From a virus, in UHGV virus genome UHGV-0179541: a stretch of DNA of 40,933 bases. The stretch is one strand, 5' to 3'. The notes beneath the pieces were generated by a model, which saw only the letters and a list, made by a program, of their open reading frames with translations, ran no database searches and was not told where the DNA came from. Of the stretch, positions 2,188-40,933 are shown piece after piece. The translations under genes and the position numbers were made by a program. Each line of letters starts with the position of its first letter. Position 1 is the stretch's first letter.

Positions 2188-4077
2188 ATGAAATCCGAAA
2201 CGCTAACCATCCAGCAAATTTTCCAAAATCAACGACAATATCGTGTTCCATTCTATCAACGTGCCTACGTATGGACGCAACGAAACCAATGGTCAGCTTT
2301 GTTGGAGGATATCTTCGAAAAAGCACAGAGCCGACTTTCGGGAACAAAACCAACCCCTCATTTCCTCGGCGCGGTGGTGCTGGAACCTCAACTCAAAAAC
2401 AGCTTGTTAGGTGTAGATACCATACATATTATTGACGGCCAGCAACGTTTAACCACTCTTCAATATATTCTGGCATCCATTCGATTATCATTGCGTGCTA
2501 CAGGCCTTTCTGAACTGGAAGGGTTAGTATTGACTTGCTTGAAAAATACAAACGAAGCAACGATGAGAAATAAAAAGGTAGAATGCTTCAAACTGTGGCC
2601 AACTTTTCGAGATCAAACTCATTTTATTCAAAGTCTTAATGTTGATAATATTGACGATCTCCGTAATGTATTTTCTGATAGCTTCACGCAACATGGTACG
2701 TTACGTAAACATTTCAACCACCCGCCGTCACTAGAGGCATTATGGTTTTTTACTGAAGCCTTTATAAAATGGATTAAAATAGAAAAACACTCACCACAAG
2801 AAAATGCTGTAGCACTAATTGAGGCTGTCTTGACGGATCTGAAACTGGTAAGCATATTTCTCGAAGCTGAAGATGATGCCCAAATAATTTTTGAAACATT
2901 AAATGGGCGAGGAGCGGAACTTCATGCAACGGATCTTATTCGCAACTATATCTTTATGTGCGCTGAGCATGAAAATATTAATGCTATTGAATTATATGAA
3001 AATGAGTGGAAGATCTTTGAAGATAAATACTGGTCGGAAAAGCAACGCCGTGGACGTATTAATAAACCACGCATGGAGTGGCTTGTACATGCGACATTGC
3101 AATCAGAAAGGCAGCGTGAAATTGATCTGTCTCGCCTTTACAATGAGTATCGTGATTATGTAAGTAAGGACTTGCCTTCACAACGAGCAGATCTGCAAGT
3201 AAAGCGCCTCAAACAATATGCATCACAATATAAAGAATTGGTTGGTGGTTTTGGCACAACCCCCATCTCACACTTTAGACATCGCATCGCAGCCTATGAT
3301 GTGACGACACTCTATCCGCTTGCTTTGTTCATTTCGATAGCTAACATCGCCGATGATGAGAAAGCAGCCATGTATAATGATCTTGTCTCCTACGTAGTAC
3401 GAAGATCCGTATGTGGCCTGACGCCAAAGAATTACAACAATGTATTTATGAATGTATTGCGACACTTGTCTAAAACGGAAATTTCCAGTGTTGAGTTACG
3501 TAATATCCTCAATAGCTTAAATGGCGAAGCCTCACGTTGGCCTGGGGACTCAGAATTTCTCAACGCTTGCATCAATGCTCCACTTTATCCTGGCAGGCTC
3601 GACGCACCGAAAATGCGCTCAATGTTAACGGAACTTGAAAGAGAACTTTGTCGCCAAGTGAAGACAGAAAAGCCTGATGTTCCAAATCTTTCTAATCTCG
3701 ATATCGATCATCTTATGCCTCAAAGTTGGTATTCCTGTTGGCCTCTCGAAAATGGTCATATGGTGACAAATTCAGATGCTACGGTAATGAACCAAATTGT
3801 TCTGTCTGGAACCGATCTTACCCCTGAACAGCTACTGGTAAGGAAACGGCAACAAGCGATAGCTACGTTGGGAAATCTAACTTTGCTTAACCTTAGCGTA
3901 AACCGTTCCGTTCAGAATGCTGTATTTCTGAAAAAACGTGATGCTCTCATCGTCCATACCAATCTACGACTGAACATACCACTTATACTTAAGGATAAAT
4001 GGGATGAGAGTGAAATACTGGAGCGAGGTAAAAAGTTGGGGGAAATTGCATTGAAAGTATGGCCAAAATACGATTAA
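2188..4077 (+). CDS. DUF262/DUF1524 two-domain protein, GmrSD-family type IV (modification-dependent) restriction endonuclease-like
   Basis: N-terminal motifs VPFYQRAYVW and IIDGQQRLTTL (DUF262 / ParB-like signature DGQQR); C-terminal DIDHLMPQS region consistent with the DUF1524 His-Me finger; AT-richer than phage core. Confidence 0.75.
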   Translation: MKSETLTIQQIFQNQRQYRVPFYQRAYVWTQRNQWSALLEDIFEKAQSRLSGTKPTPHFLGAVVLEPQLKNSLLGVDTIHIIDGQQRLTTLQYILASIRLSLRATGLSELEGLVLTCLKNTNEATMRNKKVECFKLWPTFRDQTHFIQSLNVDNIDDLRNVFSDSFTQHGTLRKHFNHPPSLEALWFFTEAFIKWIKIEKHSPQENAVALIEAVLTDLKLVSIFLEAEDDAQIIFETLNGRGAELHATDLIRNYIFMCAEHENINAIELYENEWKIFEDKYWSEKQRRGRINKPRMEWLVHATLQSERQREIDLSRLYNEYRDYVSKDLPSQRADLQVKRLKQYASQYKELVGGFGTTPISHFRHRIAAYDVTTLYPLALFISIANIADDEKAAMYNDLVSYVVRRSVCGLTPKNYNNVFMNVLRHLSKTEISSVELRNILNSLNGEASRWPGDSEFLNACINAPLYPGRLDAPKMRSMLTELERELCRQVKTEKPDVPNLSNLDIDHLMPQSWYSCWPLENGHMVTNSDATVMNQIVLSGTDLTPEQLLVRKRQQAIATLGNLTLLNLSVNRSVQNAVFLKKRDALIVHTNLRLNIPLILKDKWDESEILERGKKLGEIALKVWPKYD

Positions 4078-33939: not shown

Positions 33940-34614
33940 ATGAAAACAATCCATGACATCCGGCGGTCTAACGCCAGAAAACTGAGAGATGGTGTTGGCG
34001 GGAATTCTTCCTTTGCCACTATGATTGATCGCGAGCCAACCCAGACCAGCAGGTTTATGGGAGATGGTGCTACTAAAAATATCGGTGACAGCATGGCACG
34101 ACACATCGAAAAATGTTTCGACCTGCCTGTCGGATGGCTCGATCAAGAACACCAGACAACGAACATCACAAAAAAACCTGATGTTTCAATCACTAATAAA
34201 CAAATCACATTAGTCCCTGTCATATCATGGGTACAGGCCGGAGCATGGAAAGAAGTTGGATATTCTGAGGTTGATTTGAGCACAGCAGAAACGTATCCCT
34301 GCCCTGTCCCCTGTGGGGAAATGACTTATATCTTGCGGGTGATAGGTGATTCAATGATTGATGAGTACCGCCCGGGAGACATGATTTTTGTCGATCCTGA
34401 AGTACCTGCCTGCCACGGTGACGACGTTATTGCATTGATGCACGATACAGGTGAAACCACCTTCAAAAGGTTGATAGAAGATGGGACACAGCGTTATCTC
34501 AAAGCGTTAAACCCAAACTGGCCTGAGCCTTACATTAAGATCAACGGTAATTGCTCTATAATTGGTACAGTGATTTTCTCAGGAAAACCAAGAAGATACA
34601 AAATCAAAGCCTAA
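33940..34614 (+). CDS. cI: CI-type repressor (HTH plus S24 LexA-like peptidase domain)
   Basis: 224 aa; C-terminal S24-like region (GDSM, IGTVIFSGK); divergent from cro. Confidence 0.75.
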   Translation: MKTIHDIRRSNARKLRDGVGGNSSFATMIDREPTQTSRFMGDGATKNIGDSMARHIEKCFDLPVGWLDQEHQTTNITKKPDVSITNKQITLVPVISWVQAGAWKEVGYSEVDLSTAETYPCPVPCGEMTYILRVIGDSMIDEYRPGDMIFVDPEVPACHGDDVIALMHDTGETTFKRLIEDGTQRYLKALNPNWPEPYIKINGNCSIIGTVIFSGKPRRYKIKA

Positions 34615-34626
34615 TCAATGTTTATG

Positions 34627-34650
34627 AACCTGCTTCGGCAGGTTTTTTTA
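34627..34650 (+). terminator. Rho-independent terminator after cI
   Basis: AACCTGC-TTCG-GCAGGTT followed by a T run. Confidence 0.75.
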
Positions 34651-34653
34651 TAC

Positions 34654-34681
34654 TTGACAGTGTACCTTTGAGATACATAAT
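34654..34681 (+). promoter_or_regulatory. Near-consensus sigma70 promoter TTGACA-16-CATAAT with TGTACC operator-like half-sites (pL-like)
   Basis: Hexamers read directly; GTGTACC and ATGTACC flank the -10 element. Confidence 0.55.
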
Positions 34682-34788
34682 GTACCCAAGAGAAACAACA
34701 AACAGGCAGGACGCCCACGAAGTAGCCCGCCCGGTACGTACGAAGACCGGGATGATTCGTTAGCGGATGATTTCAGTGGAGAGAATAG

Positions 34789-35097
34789 ATGAATGAGCAG
34801 GATTTGAAGCATGTGATCGCATTGTTGCTGGAAGACGCTAAACGTTTGCAGCAGATAGAGCCAAATGCAGGCACTGAGGCCCGTATTTTGTTAGCAAAAC
34901 AGGCATTAAAGACTTGCGGGGCGCAAGACCCTGATCGAACCAAGTTCATGAATTTCATGGCTAACACGATCACCCCCCTGCCATGCAATGGAGAGAGGGT
35001 GAGCCGTGTTTATCACGACACAATGGTTAAGGCATTAAGAATCGAGCTTGATGGGCTTAGGCGTAAGATCGTGATGAACAAAATCGTTGCCAACTAA
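34789..35097 (+). CDS. Hypothetical early-left protein
   Basis: 102 aa, GGAG ribosome-binding site, first gene after the pL-like promoter. Confidence 0.5.
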   Translation: MNEQDLKHVIALLLEDAKRLQQIEPNAGTEARILLAKQALKTCGAQDPDRTKFMNFMANTITPLPCNGERVSRVYHDTMVKALRIELDGLRRKIVMNKIVAN

Positions 35098-35412
35098 GGA
35101 AGCAGACGGAAGTAAGCATGCGCTTTGTTCAAATTTGCAGACAAATATATTTGCGTCAACACCAGCACTGTTAGCAATGGAAAAAGTTTGATCAAGGATT
35201 TGTTGGCAGTTCATTGTGCTTTTGAGGATATATCCCTCTGGAATCAGTCTGCAGCAGCTATCGTCAGACTCTTTGATTGTTTTCTGGTACAGAAAGTTAA
35301 GCATTAATTCTTCAAATTTTTTGGTCTGTTCGGCTGTTGCTTCAAACAGACGAACGTGAACATAAAACTGGTTCATTAGGTTTCCTTGCTGGCTGTGTGA
35401 GAACTCCAGCAT
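35035..35412 (-). CDS. Hypothetical AT-rich ORF, start uncertain
   Basis: Track ORF in an AT-rich stretch between the immunity region and xis; no recognisable motif. Confidence 0.3.
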   Translation of the reverse strand: MLEFSHSQQGNLMNQFYVHVRLFEATAEQTKKFEELMLNFLYQKTIKESDDSCCRLIPEGYILKSTMNCQQILDQTFSIANSAGVDANIFVCKFEQSACLLPSASLVGNDFVHHDLTPKPIKLDS

Positions 35413-35680
35413 ACCACCGAGCCTGAAGTGGTGAAAAGACAGGCAATAGTTTCATTGCTGTGTGTAGTCTTGGCGGTACCAGCTTGTACACTTGCTTCCG
35501 GCTGGTACCGTCCTTTTTACAAAACAGAGAAGAGCATCACCGGACGACGGGCTCATAACCCAATCCATCCGGGCGGCAGTCACCGCAGGTGTTCTTCTCT
35601 GTTTTGTGGAGAAACTAACCGACCTTGCAGGGTCGATATGCTGAGACTAAGCAGTTAGTGAAGTAATAAGGTGATCGCAT

Positions 35681-35926
35681 ATGCTTCAAATGTTAACTCT
35701 TGAAGAATGGGCTACTGAAAAATACAGAAGCAATCCTCCAAGCGTGTCCACATTGCGTCGTTATGCTAAGCAGAATTTATTTTGCCCACCGGCCATGAAA
35801 CAAGGTCGGTTATGGCGAGTGCGTGAGGACGCCGAATTAGTTGGGGAGTTGGTAACGCCAATAATTAAGAAAAATGACTCATTACTTTTGCAACGGATTT
35901 TGAGTGATGGCAGCCAGACCGCGTAA
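35681..35926 (+). CDS. xis: Excisionase-like protein
   Basis: 81 aa overlapping the integrase start, the usual xis position. Confidence 0.55.
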   Translation: MLQMLTLEEWATEKYRSNPPSVSTLRRYAKQNLFCPPAMKQGRLWRVREDAELVGELVTPIIKKNDSLLLQRILSDGSQTA

Positions 35927-37034
35927 GAATAATGTTTCAGTCCCTAACTTATATCCGCTTTATAGTAGGAAGGTAAATAAAGTCTATTGGCGGTATAAGC
36001 ATCCAGTAACAGGAAAATTCCATGCTTTGGGAACAAACGAAGCTGAAGCTATCGCTATTGCCACTGAGGCCAACACTCGCCTGGCTGAACAAAGAACCCG
36101 GCAGATTCTGGCTATCAGTGACAGGATCGCAACCAGCAAAGGAAAGGCTATCACAACGTCAACCTGGTTAGATCGCTATCAAGCGATCCAGGATGACAGG
36201 CTTAAAAGTGGTGATATAAGACTCAACACCTATAAGCAAAAAGCTAAACCAGTATCCTTGCTCAGAGAACGAGCAGGAATGAAGTTGATCTCAGCCGTTG
36301 ATGTAAGAGATATAGCACAATTGCTTGACGAGTATATCGCTGCCGGGCAGCCGAGAATGGCGCAAGTCGTAAGGTCTGTATTGATCGATGTATTTAAGGA
36401 AGCACAGCATTATGGCGAAGTTCCGCCAGGGTATAACCCTGCTCTTGCGACGAAGCAACCCAGACGGAAAATTACCCGTCAACGCCTCAGCCTGGAAGAA
36501 TGGCAAAAAATATTCGATATCGCAGACGCCACTCATCGTTATATGGGAAATGCCATGCTCCTAGCTTTGGTCACTGGGCAGCGTTTGGGAGATATATCCA
36601 AAATGAAATTTAGTGATATTTGGGAGGATCATCTTCACGTCATTCAGGAAAAGACTGGAAGCAAAATCGCTATCCCTCTTTCTCTACGTTTGAATGCTAT
36701 CAATTGGAGCCTACGAGATGTAGTAGCTCGCTGCCGTGACTACGCAGTGAGCCCATACTTGGTGCATTTTTTCCGTTCAACCTCACAAGCAGAACGTGGT
36801 GCACAGGTTAAATCCAATACATTGACGATGAATTTTAGTAAAGCAAGGGATTTAGCAGGGATTGACTGGGGGGATGGCTCACCTGCCACATTCCATGAAC
36901 AAAGGTCTTTATCTGAACGCCTGTACAAAGAACAGGGGTTAGATACGCAAAAATTACTTGGTCATAAAACACAACAGCAGACCGATCGTTACCATGATGA
37001 TCGAGGCAAAGGATGGAGCAAAGTAGCATTGTGA
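35904..37034 (+). CDS. int: Tyrosine integrase (phage integrase family, icd-specific e14 / phage-21 type)
   Basis: 376 aa; C-terminal catalytic region ending HKTQQQTDRYHDDRG; prophage sits in icd. Confidence 0.85.
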   Translation: MMAARPRKNNVSVPNLYPLYSRKVNKVYWRYKHPVTGKFHALGTNEAEAIAIATEANTRLAEQRTRQILAISDRIATSKGKAITTSTWLDRYQAIQDDRLKSGDIRLNTYKQKAKPVSLLRERAGMKLISAVDVRDIAQLLDEYIAAGQPRMAQVVRSVLIDVFKEAQHYGEVPPGYNPALATKQPRRKITRQRLSLEEWQKIFDIADATHRYMGNAMLLALVTGQRLGDISKMKFSDIWEDHLHVIQEKTGSKIAIPLSLRLNAINWSLRDVVARCRDYAVSPYLVHFFRSTSQAERGAQVKSNTLTMNFSKARDLAGIDWGDGSPATFHEQRSLSERLYKEQGLDTQKLLGHKTQQQTDRYHDDRGKGWSKVAL

Positions 37035-37390
37035 AAATTTAAGCGTCTCAACGCCCCGTTGAATTTCTCAACATGCTTGAAAAAGAAACAAGCAGCCCGT
37101 TTTAAGTGAAAAAGGGACGCGTTTATATGTCAAAGAAATATGTTGATCAATAAAAGCTAAACTTCCAACTTGAGTGTTAAGTCGTATCAGGCTATAAGTC
37201 AAACGTATCGTAAGTAAATTCAATAACAGCCATTGATTATTGTGATGAACTCCATAATTTTAAAGAACACTCCAACCTCGATGTACTACTATTATTTCTT
37301 GATAATGAAGCGAAAGCTTAATCCTAACGAAACGTCTTGGACAGCTTAGTAGATTCATGATATACATTAAATCTCAAAAAAGGAAACAAT

Positions 37391-38350
37391 ATGGAAAGCT
37401 ATACTTTTGAATTGAAAGGAAATGTATTTGGCTTTTTTCAACGCAATGGTGAGGATTGTTTTTTATACATTAACACTGGTTTATTCCCTAAAGTAACCTA
37501 CTACCAATGGAGTCATTGGCAACGAGGAAAGGATAACTATAATGAAACATATCCTGATGCAATAAAAACAGATGAAATAGCAAAGGCGATTGGTTATTTT
37601 TCTTGGAATCAATGCTTTGATCGTTGTCCATACCAACCTATAGTTATCAGTTTATCTAAAAAAACAGAAGCAGGAATATTCTACCCTAGAATGAATAGAG
37701 GAGAACCAAAACTATATAACCAACAAATAGCGGAGGCACGAATCCTTGATGAAGTAAGGTCTTTTAATAATATATGTGATTCATTAAATGAATTATTTAA
37801 CTATATAGATCCTGATACTGGTAATTTGAGTTGTTTTGGTAATAAAATCAGAGAAATATTAATTATTGCATGTACTGAGGTTGAATACTTACTTCACAAT
37901 TTTCTTACAGATAATGGTTACACTGTTAACAACAATAGATTTAGTACTAACGATTATGTTAAATCTCTTGGTTTGCTGAAATTAGATGGGTATTCTACGA
38001 GGCTCGTTTACTATCCATATTTGCAAGAGTGGTGCCCATTTAGTGGTTGGGATGAATCTAAACCAACTACTAGTTTGACTTGGTATGACGCATATAATGC
38101 AGTTAAGCATAATCGCGGAACAAACAAGCAAAAGGCATCTCTTAACGCTGTAATAAATGCAGTAGCTGCCATTCATATTTTACTCGTAGCTCAATATGGG
38201 AGTGAGATATTTAATAGCCCGATGCACTCTAATTTCTCAAGCATTTTTAATACAACGAAATATCCTTCTTTCTTAGCAAATGATCTTCAGTGCCCAACAA
38301 TGAATCATGATCAAATCCTATGGGATAAAAAGTCATATTTATTTTCATAA
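37391..38350 (+). CDS. Hypothetical cargo protein, 319 aa, Trp/Tyr/Cys-rich, AT-rich (candidate single-gene defence or Abi protein)
   Basis: Strong ribosome-binding site (AAAGGAAACAAT ATG); AT-rich by eye; between int and the att site; no family recognised. Confidence 0.55.
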   Translation: MESYTFELKGNVFGFFQRNGEDCFLYINTGLFPKVTYYQWSHWQRGKDNYNETYPDAIKTDEIAKAIGYFSWNQCFDRCPYQPIVISLSKKTEAGIFYPRMNRGEPKLYNQQIAEARILDEVRSFNNICDSLNELFNYIDPDTGNLSCFGNKIREILIIACTEVEYLLHNFLTDNGYTVNNNRFSTNDYVKSLGLLKLDGYSTRLVYYPYLQEWCPFSGWDESKPTTSLTWYDAYNAVKHNRGTNKQKASLNAVINAVAAIHILLVAQYGSEIFNSPMHSNFSSIFNTTKYPSFLANDLQCPTMNHDQILWDKKSYLFS

Positions 38351-38472
38351 AAAATTGAAAACACCTTAGCCCGCTTCTGGCACGGAGTGGATAGAAAGCA
38401 AGGCATAAGTAAGTTATTAATTTAAGTTCTTCAAGAAAGTGCCCACTCTATATATTTGATGTCTTAACAGAT

Positions 38473-38510
38473 TAATATGTAGGTGTCTTTATAGCGACAC
38501 CTACATATTA
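38473..38510. terminator. Long perfect hairpin (15-bp stem TAATATGTAGGTGTC, 8-nt loop) between convergent cargo genes
   Basis: Read directly; T run follows on the plus strand. Confidence 0.6.
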
Positions 38511-38513
38511 ATT

Positions 38514-39533
38514 TCAATTATTTTTTTTATCAATTATATGACCACTGTTAGTGCCATAATACTTACCAGAAGCAACACCTTGCTTATAAAAATCATTCAA
38601 TACTTTTATTAGCAATCGTGCATCTGATGCATCTTTTATTACTAGCCTACCATTTTTTTCCTCTAACTTAGCACCTTCGAATATATTTAACGTTTCTTGA
38701 TATTTTATTATTATGTCAGGACTTAAATTTTCGTGGTTCTTTTTTTGAGCTATGCTCGCAATAGTTCGCTGAAGTGTTTTATTAGTTAAAATAACCTCTT
38801 CCAGAATTTTTATATTATCTATAATAGAAGCATCAGAAATAACCTTTAACACACTTCTTGCATTTTCCACAAATTCTTTTTCGATCCCGATAATTTGTTC
38901 AAACCCCAATTTCGATACAATATAAATCTTGTTATTTTTAAAGATAAAATCTATTTTTTTGTCAAAACTCACTGTCTGCATCGGAACGACTTTCATTGTA
39001 GCACTATTAACATCAAAGATAGCCTGCATTTTTTGAAAGGTATTCAATGGAGTATCTGTTGCCACCTTAGATTTTGTTAGCTTCCTATAAATGGTAAAAC
39101 CATCATCTTGTGTAGATATTTTTAAACAAAAAGCCAATATATCAGACTTAACTTCCTCTAGACTCTTTAATATATTTATTCCTGAGCCTTTATTTATTTT
39201 TTCTAATACTTTCCTGAATTCAAGGTCTTCAATATTTGCATAACCATAAATAGCGTCAGTCCCATCATCAGAAATCACTGAGTAGTCATGATACTCTAAT
39301 TCGTTGTTGCCTACCATTTTGTTTAATGTATCCAATGACCCAGTTTTAAAAAAATCCACCATTTTTTTGTCAAGACTCACCTTATAGATATCAAATATAA
39401 ATCTGTTTTCTGATGAGACTGAAGAATCTTTATTAATTTTCTTTGTTATCAAATAACATTTCATCGAAAATGTATTCGAGTGATAAAGATTCATTAGTGA
39501 ATTTAAAATACCTTTAATGTCTATTTCCGTCAT
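38514..39533 (-). CDS. Soluble 339-aa cargo protein, second gene of the two-gene operon (Kiwa KwaB-like by layout only)
   Basis: Start ATG overlaps the upstream stop (TAATG); Lys/Asn/Ile-rich, no TM segment; very AT-rich. Confidence 0.55.
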   Translation of the reverse strand: MTEIDIKGILNSLMNLYHSNTFSMKCYLITKKINKDSSVSSENRFIFDIYKVSLDKKMVDFFKTGSLDTLNKMVGNNELEYHDYSVISDDGTDAIYGYANIEDLEFRKVLEKINKGSGINILKSLEEVKSDILAFCLKISTQDDGFTIYRKLTKSKVATDTPLNTFQKMQAIFDVNSATMKVVPMQTVSFDKKIDFIFKNNKIYIVSKLGFEQIIGIEKEFVENARSVLKVISDASIIDNIKILEEVILTNKTLQRTIASIAQKKNHENLSPDIIIKYQETLNIFEGAKLEEKNGRLVIKDASDARLLIKVLNDFYKQGVASGKYYGTNSGHIIDKKNN

Positions 39534-40153
39534 TATTCTAATTCCTGATATTTAGCATAGAAGAGTTTGTAACCAATCTTTTGAATTTTGATACTGTCAT
39601 CTTCGTCCAAATATTTATTCGAACAAATTATCATTCCTTTCTTTTTTTGGCCGCCACTATTTATATACTCAATGCTGTAAAGTGAGTACTTTATAGCTAA
39701 AGTTGGATTTATAAGAATCATTGATGAGTTAGAATAAATAAGAAATGTAACCAGTAGCAGAATAGCTAAAGAAAATACACTCATGGGGTCAGAAAGATCT
39801 TGAAAAAGAAATGGCAGAAGATATGTAAAAAGATAACTTATAGATTCACTGTTTTTATTTTCTATGTCGACTATTTTTACAAAATCCCCATCATTATCAA
39901 TGCGTCTTTCCATATTTGATAATAAGAATATTAAACCAACAATACCAAAAACGACAAGAAGAAATATAATCGTAACCGCACCAAAATTTTCAATGTATAA
40001 TATTAATGCCTTCTTGTTCACCCCCCCCCAGTTGAGGTAATCTTTTTTCTTGTATAGTTGATTTACGGTCATAATTAAAAACAAAGGCATGTAAGACACC
40101 AAAAATAGTGTCAACCTTGCTCCTATTTTTAACTCTTCTTTTCGTGATGACAT
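39533..40153 (-). CDS. Four-helix membrane protein, first gene of the two-gene operon (Kiwa KwaA-like by layout only)
   Basis: Hydrophobic helices at roughly aa 20-37, 63-86, 111-125 and 131-148 of the track ORF; probable ATG start at 40153 after GAGG; contains the G9 tract. Confidence 0.55.
   Translation of the reverse strand: MSSRKEELKIGARLTLFLVSYMPLFLIMTVNQLYKKKDYLNWGGVNKKALILYIENFGAVTIIFLLVVFGIVGLIFLLSNMERRIDNDGDFVKIVDIENKNSESISYLFTYLLPFLFQDLSDPMSVFSLAILLLVTFLIYSNSSMILINPTLAIKYSLYSIEYINSGGQKKKGMIICSNKYLDEDDSIKIQKIGYKLFYAKYQELE
40021..40029. repeat. Homopolymer tract, 9 C on plus strand (G9 in the membrane-protein coding strand)
   Basis: Read directly; encodes WGGV. Confidence 0.9.
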
Positions 40154-40438
40154 AGTTCCAAAACCTCGAATCAACGCTTTCTTAGGTACTGATAACTGTA
40201 CCTAGTTTAACCTATAATATCTATGCAACATATTGATATATTGGTTAAAATTCCTTCTTTGATATCCCCTTACTTTCCCATTGATCAGTATGAAAAAACG
40301 TGAGCAATGTCCGTTATTGGCACTGAACGGACCTAAATATTAACGAGCATCCACCTGAAATGATCATAAAAAACTGAGGTATGCCTAATTGGAACTAGGT
40401 AATAGGGCTACCCTCTGAACATCCAAACTACTAGGGGG

Positions 40439-40471
40439 TTTTGATAACTTGTTTTGATAAAATTTTGATAA
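40439..40471. repeat. Three direct repeats of TTTTGATAA near the att site; candidate integrase arm-type sites
   Basis: Copies at 40439, 40452 and 40463; the same TTTTGATAACC motif recurs at 1471..1481 near the other end. Confidence 0.4.
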
Positions 40472-40494
40472 CCGTTAGCAGCCTAACAAAAAAC

Positions 40495-40517
40495 AACGGG
40501 AGCGTTACGCTCCCGTT
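40495..40517 (-). terminator. Rho-independent terminator of icd (AACGGGAGCG-TTAC-GCTCCCGTT)
   Basis: Hairpin immediately after the icd stop, followed by a T run on the minus strand. Confidence 0.75.
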
Positions 40518-40540
40518 AATAAATTTAACAAACAACGGCA

Positions 40541-40933
40541 TTACATGTTTTTGATGATTGCGTCGCCAAACTCGCTACATTTCAGCAGTTTAGCACCTTC
40601 CATCAGACGTTCAAAATCGTAAGTTACGGTCTTGGCGTTGATCGCGCCTTCCATACCTTTAACAATTAAATCAGCCGCTTCGGTCCAACCCATGTGGCGT
40701 AACATCATCTCAGCGGAGAGAATAATAGAGCCAGGGTTTACTTTGTCCTGACCGGCGTATTTCGGCGCAGTACCGTGGGTGGCTTCAAACAGGGCGCATT
40801 CGTCACCGATGTTTGCTCCAGGGGCGATACCGATACCGCCAACCTGCGCTGCCAGAGCGTCAGAAATGTAGTCACCGTTCAGGTTCATACAGGCGATAAC
40901 ATCATATTCAGCCGGACGCAGCAGGATCTGTTG
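40541..40933 (-). CDS. icd: Isocitrate dehydrogenase, 3' portion (gene continues beyond the window)
   Basis: C-terminal sequence [38 protein letters not shown]; ORF open to the window edge. Confidence 0.9.

Follow-up and report, generated by a model that had tools for sequence, protein, structure and literature searches.

A HEPN-like, single-gene prophage cargo protein as a candidate abortive-infection effector

Described HEPN effectors and the 319-aa cargo protein

HEPN-MNT (HepT-MntA) toxins are proteins of about 130 amino acids (aa) that carry the motif R-x4-H-x-Y, and the cognate MNT enzyme AMPylates the Tyr of this motif, thereby neutralising the toxin. In the present study we describe another protein with a HEPN-like fold, the 319-aa product of an open reading frame (ORF) located at positions 37391..38350 of the UHGV virus genome UHGV-0179541 (the whole 40,933-nt stretch of DNA that was analysed is referred to below as the window). 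Our preferred reading, to which we assign a rough probability of 50%, is that this prophage-borne protein would act as a self-contained abortive-infection effector, which cleaves RNA when triggered by a phage and works independently of the neighbouring Kiwa system.

Compared with the HEPN-MNT toxins, the family of the 319-aa protein shows several differences: (i) the Tyr and the Arg around the His are in swapped order (Y-x4-H-x-R), (ii) no nucleotidyltransferase gene is found as a conserved neighbour, and (iii) the domain contains a 55-residue insert and flanking modules. A second described system is HepS (STM14_3211) of the Salmonella prophage Gifsy-1, a solo HEPN abortive-infection (Abi) protein whose resting tetramer is inactive and which, upon activation by a phage tail-tip protein, cleaves tRNA anticodon loops (Nature 2026, PMC13043305). 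The protein studied here resembles HepS in that it is encoded by a single gene without a partner or inhibitor gene, belongs to the accessory cargo of a lambdoid prophage and has a HEPN-type fold; inactivity by default, with a phage component as the switch, is a further likeness that we propose. In contrast, HepS carries the canonical Rx4-6H motif and those of its homologues that were analysed are shorter than 250 aa, whereas here the protein is longer and the motif is absent. Judged by sequence, HepS is an analogue and not a detectable homologue, since PDB sequence searches at E values of up to 10 revealed no homology between them.

The protein also gave no PADLOC-model or Pfam HEPN match that would link it to AbiV, ApeA (Gao_Ape), Tha or DS-11 (PADLOC should include those of them that have been modelled). 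Moreover, AbiV-type domains keep a basic residue and lose the His (PMC3710099), which is the opposite of the situation in the 319-aa family. In its mechanistic class the protein would still be of a known kind, comparable to the solo HEPN effectors found in prophages, although its motif is rewired and its N-terminal module is new.

The 319-aa product is identical to RefSeq WP_050489393.1, which appears in Table S10 of the independent machine-learning study DefensePredictor (Science 2026, PMC13092281) under the label 'Predicted novel defense gene'; its log-odds average 12.04 (min 9.24, max 14.79) versus a strict cutoff of 4. No domain is assigned in the entry, nor is any known defence protein named there as a remote homologue. 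Table S4 of the same work (PMC13092281) also flags a homologue from Enterobacter and two short members of the family, and no family member was found in the accessible parts of its Tables S6-S8 (cloned or validated systems). WP_050489393.1 and five homologue accessions were absent from the main text of the literature searched, their sole trace being the DefensePredictor supplementary tables. The protein thus has a previous computational prediction, in the form of a score in a supplementary table, but neither a domain assignment nor a solved structure.

The gene and its translation signal are as follows.

37391..38350, + strand: complete ORF of a solo HEPN-like protein, 319 aa, with an ATG start and a TAA stop (ORF listing)
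37380..37385, + strand: ribosome-binding site AAGGAA, 5 nt 5' of the ATG, inside the DNA common to loci of other genera

The gene has a GC content of 0.329 (0.247 at third codon positions) and is preceded by a 356-bp spacer of similar composition (0.337), compared with values of 0.454 for int and 0.485 for the whole window. These data agree with the original prediction for this locus, made from the letters of the DNA, which had pointed to a 319-aa AT-rich ORF beside int that is convergent with a two-gene operon, and which had attributed to it an AT-rich upstream region of its own and a strong ribosome-binding site. The description of the gene as an orphan was correct with regard to the missing annotation, but not otherwise, since 625 homologues (E <= 1e-3) were identified in a word-indexed search, all of them named 'hypothetical protein'.

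HEPN-like fold and the non-canonical motif

The following parts of the protein are relevant for the assignment of its fold and motif.

37391..37654, + strand: variable N-terminal alpha/beta domain, aa 1 to ~88, composed of four strands, two helices and a fifth strand
37667..37702, + strand: Arg-rich linker motif P-G-x-Y-Y-P-R100-I-x-R103, aa 93-104, at the start of the conserved core
37727..38206, + strand: HEPN-like helical core, aa 113-272, composed of four helices and an insert
37877..37885, + strand: E163-V-E165 in helix 2 (inside C-T-E-V-E), where HEPN domains have their conserved acidic residue
38093..38116, + strand: Y235-N-x-x-K239-H240-x-R242 at the end of helix 3, in the place of Rx4-6H, with Tyr replacing Arg

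An AlphaFold model built from 52 homologues reached a predicted local distance difference test score (pLDDT) of 90.3 and a predicted template modelling score (pTM) of 0.89. The conserved core (aa ~90-310) is built around a HEPN-like four-helix domain, with helix 1 at residues 117-138, helix 2 at 151-174, helix 3 at 230-240 and helix 4 at 251-269; the 55-residue insert occupies positions 175-229. The best structural matches of the model, obtained by the fold search that the original prediction had proposed as a check, were HEPN partners of MNT enzymes (PDB 8xdj, 8xeh, 5yep, 7ae2). At the level of the modelled fold, the C-terminal two-thirds of the protein can be placed in the HEPN superfamily. 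The earlier statement that no motif could be assigned has been superseded, as both the HEPN-like fold and a conserved non-canonical motif of catalytic type are now assigned.

Searches of sequence families with the 319-aa protein gave no match in Pfam, in NCBIfam or among the PHROGs families of known function, and none of the families of PADLOC-DB v2 (all 5,027 models) matched it at E up to 1. The sole match was PHROG phrog_19461 (function unknown; E = 1.1e-30, aa 127-273), which is uninformative on function because this family carries no functional annotation. A Pfam scan of 115 distant members yielded nothing significant (one HEPN_RiboL-PSP match at E = 0.066), and eight very divergent short members gave no Pfam match; no precomputed Pfam domain was recorded among the 625 homologues. 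PDB profile searches with the full-length and the core-only alignments were also negative. By sequence, the protein thus appears to fall outside the curated HEPN families of Pfam, NCBIfam and PDB.

The canonical Rx4-6H motif of catalytic RNase-type HEPN domains, which are metal-independent endoribonucleases that usually act as dimers with a composite active site, was not found anywhere in the 319-aa protein; the conserved helix-2 acid of such domains is present, as E163 within helix 151-174. In the family, the end of helix 3 reads W-Y-x-A-Y235-N236-x-V-K239-H240-[ND]-R242. H240 is located at the very end of this helix, which is the position of the HEPN catalytic His, and a long insert separates helices 2 and 3. 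Four residues (E163, Y235, K239 and H240) are invariant in all 52 close, all 115 distant and all 10 core-only sequences, while the distant set retains E165 and N236 in 110 of 115 cases each and R242 in 108. In the linker, R100 is found in 108 and R103 in 111 of the 115 distant representatives, and both are strongly conserved in the closer set. The family has therefore kept the catalytic His, the polar residue following the Arg position and the helix-2 acid, and its His is bracketed by Lys and Arg.

HEPN domains are known to have a conserved acid in helix 2 and to accommodate inserts between this helix and the third one (PMC3710099). The 2013 HEPN survey also described families that have lost the Arg and kept the His, in which other conserved basic residues were proposed to compensate, as well as domains without the full motif that are non-catalytic and domains that serve as substrate-binding modules of nucleotidyltransferases (PMC3710099). 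Based on fold similarity and the position of the motif, we interpret the family as a HEPN variant that is non-canonical and probably catalytic.

According to our preferred reading, the protein would consist of two modules, a fast-diverging N-terminal domain and the conserved HEPN-like core, and would act in the manner of the solo HEPN defence proteins HepS, Tha and ApeA. In the lysogen, constitutive synthesis would yield an inactive protein, restrained by its N-terminal domain or through its oligomeric state, until an infecting phage switches it on. The catalytic-type constellation (E163 and Y235-N-x-x-K239-H240-x-R242, possibly aided by R100, R103 and R154) may then cut cellular RNA (tRNA, rRNA or mRNA) in a metal-independent reaction, so that translation stops and the infection is aborted, independently of Kiwa. 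Four elements of this scheme are presumed: RNA cleavage, auto-inhibition, triggering by a phage and the resulting defence phenotype. The N-terminal domain, which we propose to be a sensor or regulatory module, is the least conserved part of the protein and is absent from core-only relatives of 180-250 aa.

The same site can be interpreted differently. The HEPN-like domain of a defence or conflict protein could be a non-RNase, whose Y/K/H/R/E site binds or processes a nucleotide or a phosphorylated ligand, or acts on DNA. This would be consistent with the constant replacement of the Rx4-6H Arg by Tyr and with the invariant Lys before the His, as well as with the structural matches to HEPN partners of MNT, given that some HEPN domains are substrate-binding modules of nucleotidyltransferases. 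Furthermore, in Pseudomonas protegens a homologue directly follows DuOB, DUF488, mSLOG and DUF4326 genes, which are nucleotide-handling in appearance. However, this arrangement does not recur at other loci, and the invariant residues (the His, the following Asn and the helix-2 Glu) are precisely those tied to HEPN RNase chemistry, while activity has been proposed for Arg-less, His-keeping HEPN families in which other basic residues compensate (PMC3710099). We regard a non-RNase function as possible, but doubtful.

The preferred reading of an RNA-cleaving abortive-infection effector is supported by the positions of the invariant His and Glu, by the cargo slots and defence islands in which homologues are found, by the solo status of the gene, by its DefensePredictor listing and by the HepS precedent. 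Several observations weigh against it. RNase activity is not guaranteed, because the Arg of the canonical Rx4-6H is swapped for an invariant Tyr. The N-terminal domain, the putative sensor, shows a ratio of nonsynonymous to synonymous substitution rates (dN/dS) of ~0.09 among close enterobacterial homologues, i.e. it is not diversifying. Several homologues are flanked by housekeeping genes, with no defence neighbour. Finally, only 45% of the tested DefensePredictor predictions were validated (a rate that rises with the score), and the score draws on gene context, which here includes Kiwa (PMC13092281).

Family distribution and the single-gene unit

An exhaustive profile search extended the family to 2,996 clusters at 50% identity, of which 861 reached E <= 1e-30. 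Members were identified in Enterobacterales, Vibrionaceae, Pseudomonas, Acinetobacter, Alphaproteobacteria, Bacteroidota, Verrucomicrobiota, Collinsella and Bacillus. In the assembly collection, 899 blocks contain the exact protein, as do 4 of 5,426 complete E. coli genomes, where it is annotated as a hypothetical-protein coding sequence. Pairwise dN/dS values against homologues of 61-72% identity ranged from 0.07 to 0.12; synonymous sites are near saturation in this comparison, yet the direction of selection is clear. The 319-aa gene is a real gene under purifying selection.

Analysis of the genomic neighbourhoods revealed homologues in three different slots of P2-like phages and in the int-attachment site (int-att) slot of lambdoid prophages, as well as in defence islands.

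Yersinia ruckeri, P2-like prophage: homologue after int and an OLD-family nuclease gene, in the P2 old/tin slot
Salmonella phage SEN8, viable and P2-like: homologue between cos and the portal gene
Serratia, P2-like prophage: homologue between a tail-fibre gene and gpU, corresponding to the Z/fun slot of P2
Citrobacter and E. coli, P2-like prophages: homologue flanked by gpV and gpS, in reverse orientation
Citrobacter farmeri and Enterobacter, lambdoid prophages at icd: homologue between a SRAP-domain gene and umuDC-like genes
Acinetobacter baumannii, island: homologue after a SoFic-type Fic gene, followed downstream by a SNF2/DUF4391/methyltransferase module or by CRISPR-Cas I-F
Oceanobacter: homologue adjoining the gene of a TIR-TM protein
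Pseudomonas: homologue adjoining the gene of a PIN_12 protein
Collinsella: homologue with DUF2971, DUF4365 and AAA_16 proteins encoded nearby
Bacillus: homologue with RES-domain and STAND-like NTPase proteins encoded nearby

The family is common in the defence islands of A. baumannii. No recurrent neighbour family was detected among 110 neighbour proteins from 10 diverse loci. DNA similarity to the loci of other genera extends from 10-30 nt 5' of the ATG to the stop codon, and the shared unit is therefore limited to the ORF and its ribosome-binding site. Locus-to-locus DNA comparison revealed no conserved antitoxin, small RNA, promoter or terminator flanking the gene. The original prediction had considered a single-gene system and non-core prophage cargo in a defence hotspot, and both proposals are supported: solitary homologues are present in defence islands and in no fewer than four further cargo slots of prophages, with only the ORF and its ribosome-binding site conserved. 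The gene is thus mobile on its own, moving between prophage hotspots and defence islands.

In P2 itself, the gpS-gpV slot is occupied by orf30. Homology of the 319-aa protein to P2 orf30 was considered and rejected, since a tblastn search of 50,697 phage records gave only Salmonella phage SEN8 and no relationship with P2.

The distribution described above bears on two further explanations. The gene could be a selfish element of the toxin or addiction type, or could serve prophage fitness in another way (e.g. through host manipulation), without being primarily directed against phages; this would fit the toxin-type HEPN-like fold, the strict association with mobile elements and the retention of the gene in degraded prophages. 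However, no adjacent antitoxin gene is conserved, as would be expected of a type II toxin-antitoxin system such as HEPN-MNT, nor is an antitoxin RNA or any other neighbour, and homology does not extend beyond the ribosome-binding site on one side and the stop codon on the other. In addition, the slots are those of P2 old, tin and Z/fun and of the defence systems of other phages, and the DefensePredictor defence score is high. A selfish function is thus unlikely.

The presence of the gene in the viable P2-like phage SEN8, as well as its gpS-gpV position inside the late region, could instead indicate a counter-defence or lifecycle accessory role, in which the protein aids infection by its own carrier phage, e.g. 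by degrading host defence RNAs. We consider this role distinctly improbable, as the gpS-gpV copy is opposite in strand to the late operon, which is typical of cargo expressed in the lysogen, homologues are also found in non-phage defence islands beside CRISPR-Cas, SoFic and TIR genes, and no PHROGs family of known function was matched.

A more far-reaching and decidedly tentative proposal is that the 319-aa protein is the founding member of a new and widespread single-protein immune family of ~3,000 clusters at 50% identity, distributed from Proteobacteria to Actinobacteria/Firmicutes. Its rewired, HEPN-derived site (Tyr-Asn-x-x-Lys-His-x-Arg plus Glu) would be a mirror image of the R-x4-H-x-Y of HEPN-MNT and might perform a variant of RNA cleavage or other nucleotide or nucleic-acid chemistry, under the control of a swappable, previously unseen N-terminal phage-sensing gate. 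If the defence role of the 319-aa protein were confirmed, a large unannotated family, for which Pfam, NCBIfam and PADLOC currently have no model and no structure has been solved, would join the anti-phage genes. It would add another solo sensor-effector to those moved by prophages between cargo slots, and a model of the family could serve to annotate it in defence islands and in prophages of the P2-like and lambdoid types. Given the constant Tyr in place of the Arg and the invariant Lys-His-x-Arg, it would also offer a natural test of the limits of HEPN active-site rewiring.

Three variant forms were observed among the homologous loci. In P. protegens (locus L068, 6246..8966) the homologue directly follows the DuOB, DUF488 and mSLOG/DUF4326 genes on the same strand, with intergenic gaps of a few bases at most. 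The locus looks operon-like and may represent a multi-gene variant of the system; this arrangement was not seen at other loci. In Pseudomonas sp. NPDC086251 (locus L026, 9804..10992) the homologue is divided into two ORFs (150 and 183 aa) and is probably a pseudogene. Core-only relatives of 180-250 aa, which do not have the N-terminal domain, were identified in Collinsella (~30 loci), Bacillus, Bacteroidota and Verrucomicrobiota (loci L029, L031, L032, L033, L043 and L065, together with DefensePredictor Table S4). These retain N145, E163, Y235, N236, K239, H240 and R242.

Kiwa, transcription signals and the host prophage

The 319-aa gene is placed between the e14-type integrase gene and a Kiwa operon.

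35904..37034: lambda-type integrase, left neighbour (Pfam Arm-DNA-bind_1 at 1e-37 and Phage_integrase at 8e-18)
38514..39533, - strand: KwaB of Kiwa (PADLOC E = 1e-121)
39533..40174, - strand: KwaA of Kiwa (PADLOC E = 2e-95)

The Kiwa operon of the window is intact; KwaA (213 aa) is read from a TTG start, and its gene overlaps kwaB by one base. As the original prediction had suggested, the 319-aa gene could be a third component or regulator of this system: it directly adjoins kwaB in convergent orientation, shares its low GC content with Kiwa (0.29-0.33), and Kiwa is next door in every E. coli locus that carries the exact allele. These E. coli loci are not independent observations, because they represent one and the same prophage variant. 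Among 64 loci with a homologue match screened by tblastn, kwaA and kwaB were detected only at this E. coli icd locus (0 of the 63 others), and none of the 110 neighbour proteins of the 10 diverse loci matched the Kiwa models. Homologues of 61-72% identity occupy quite different slots. Moreover, the 319-aa protein shows no homology to KwaA (membrane protein) or KwaB (DUF4868), as the PADLOC and Pfam Kiwa models match only its neighbours.

In published systems Kiwa works as two genes, and is thus sufficient without a third one. The 319-aa gene is read from the other strand and is separated from Kiwa by a strong hairpin. Its ORF is intact although kwaA is frameshifted or truncated in at least three of the four complete E. 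coli genomes, two of which also have a split kwaB; this sample is small and partly clonal. On the grounds of co-occurrence, the accessory role in Kiwa was discarded; it is largely refuted, and we consider its probability to be very small.

Among the genomes with the same locus (L001, L072, L073, L076), several have kwaA cut to 126 aa and kwaB in pieces of 135 and 193 aa, and the prophage with the broken kwaA/kwaB carries insertion sequence (IS) insertions. Split kwaB genes occur naturally, and the broken genes may be either decayed or 'split' variants of Kiwa.

The DNA flanking the 319-aa gene contains the following candidate transcription signals.

37170..37198, + strand: weak promoter candidate TTGAGT-17-TATAAG, spotted by eye
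37338..37366, + strand: weak promoter candidate TGGACA-17 nt-TATACA, found by eye with low confidence, failing the criteria of the promoter scan
38471..38530, + strand: intrinsic-terminator-like hairpin with a T-rich tail (17-bp perfect stem, 8-nt loop)

No sigma-70-like promoter in the 356-bp upstream spacer passed the promoter scan, and the candidate at 37338..37366 is not conserved at other homologue loci. The 15-bp hairpin reported earlier at 38473..38510 is real, but larger, with two perfectly matching arms of 17 nt each (38471-38487 and 38496-38512). Its free energy is -25.5 kcal/mol (z = -11 versus shuffles), and none of 200 shuffled sequences folded equally well. The hairpin, which is located outside the DNA common to other homologue loci, starts 121 nt past the stop codon of the 319-aa gene and also abuts the stop codon of kwaB. 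Nevertheless, it looks like the terminator of the 319-aa gene's transcript, because the T-rich (U-rich in RNA) tail follows it on the + strand only. Independent transcription of the gene, which had been suggested earlier, is consistent with this terminator-like structure, while on the promoter side only the two weak candidates can be indicated; a promoter of its own is plausible from the sequence.

Within the 120-nt spacer between the stop codon and the hairpin (38351..38470), one stretch, ccttagcccgcttctggcacggagtgg, is locally richer in GC; it contains no ORF and gave no Rfam match. The spacer is not common to homologue loci. An Rfam scan of the region 34500-40933 detected nothing close to the 319-aa gene; the remaining matches were one to STnc150, a Hfq-binding small RNA, and two at chance level. 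The STnc150 match lies between kwaA and the icd 3' end (40333..40528, + strand) and is below the threshold (31 bits versus a gathering score of 60; E = 1e-3).

The identical locus in E. coli CFSAN061769 is surrounded by genes annotated as xisE, intE, ymfK, ymfL and ymfT, which identifies the element as an e14-like lambdoid prophage. To the right of the Kiwa operon lies the 3' end of icd, which places the 319-aa gene in the int-att cargo slot of this prophage. Two overlapping ORFs on opposite strands, 34789..35097 (+; 102 aa) and 35035..35412 (-; 125 aa), were identified between the repressor region and xis/int; neither gave a Pfam match, and the latter is ymfI-like according to the annotated genome. 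At the opposite end of the prophage, in an AT-rich region beside the tail-fibre and tail-fibre-assembly genes, we identified a gene for a 629-aa GmrSD-type (type IV) restriction enzyme (2188..4077, + strand; Pfam GmrSD_N at 1e-33, GmrSD_C at 4e-19). Defence cargo is thus present at both ends of the element, and the e14-like prophage of the window has three separate cargos of defence type, with GmrSD located at one end and both Kiwa and the 319-aa gene at the other.

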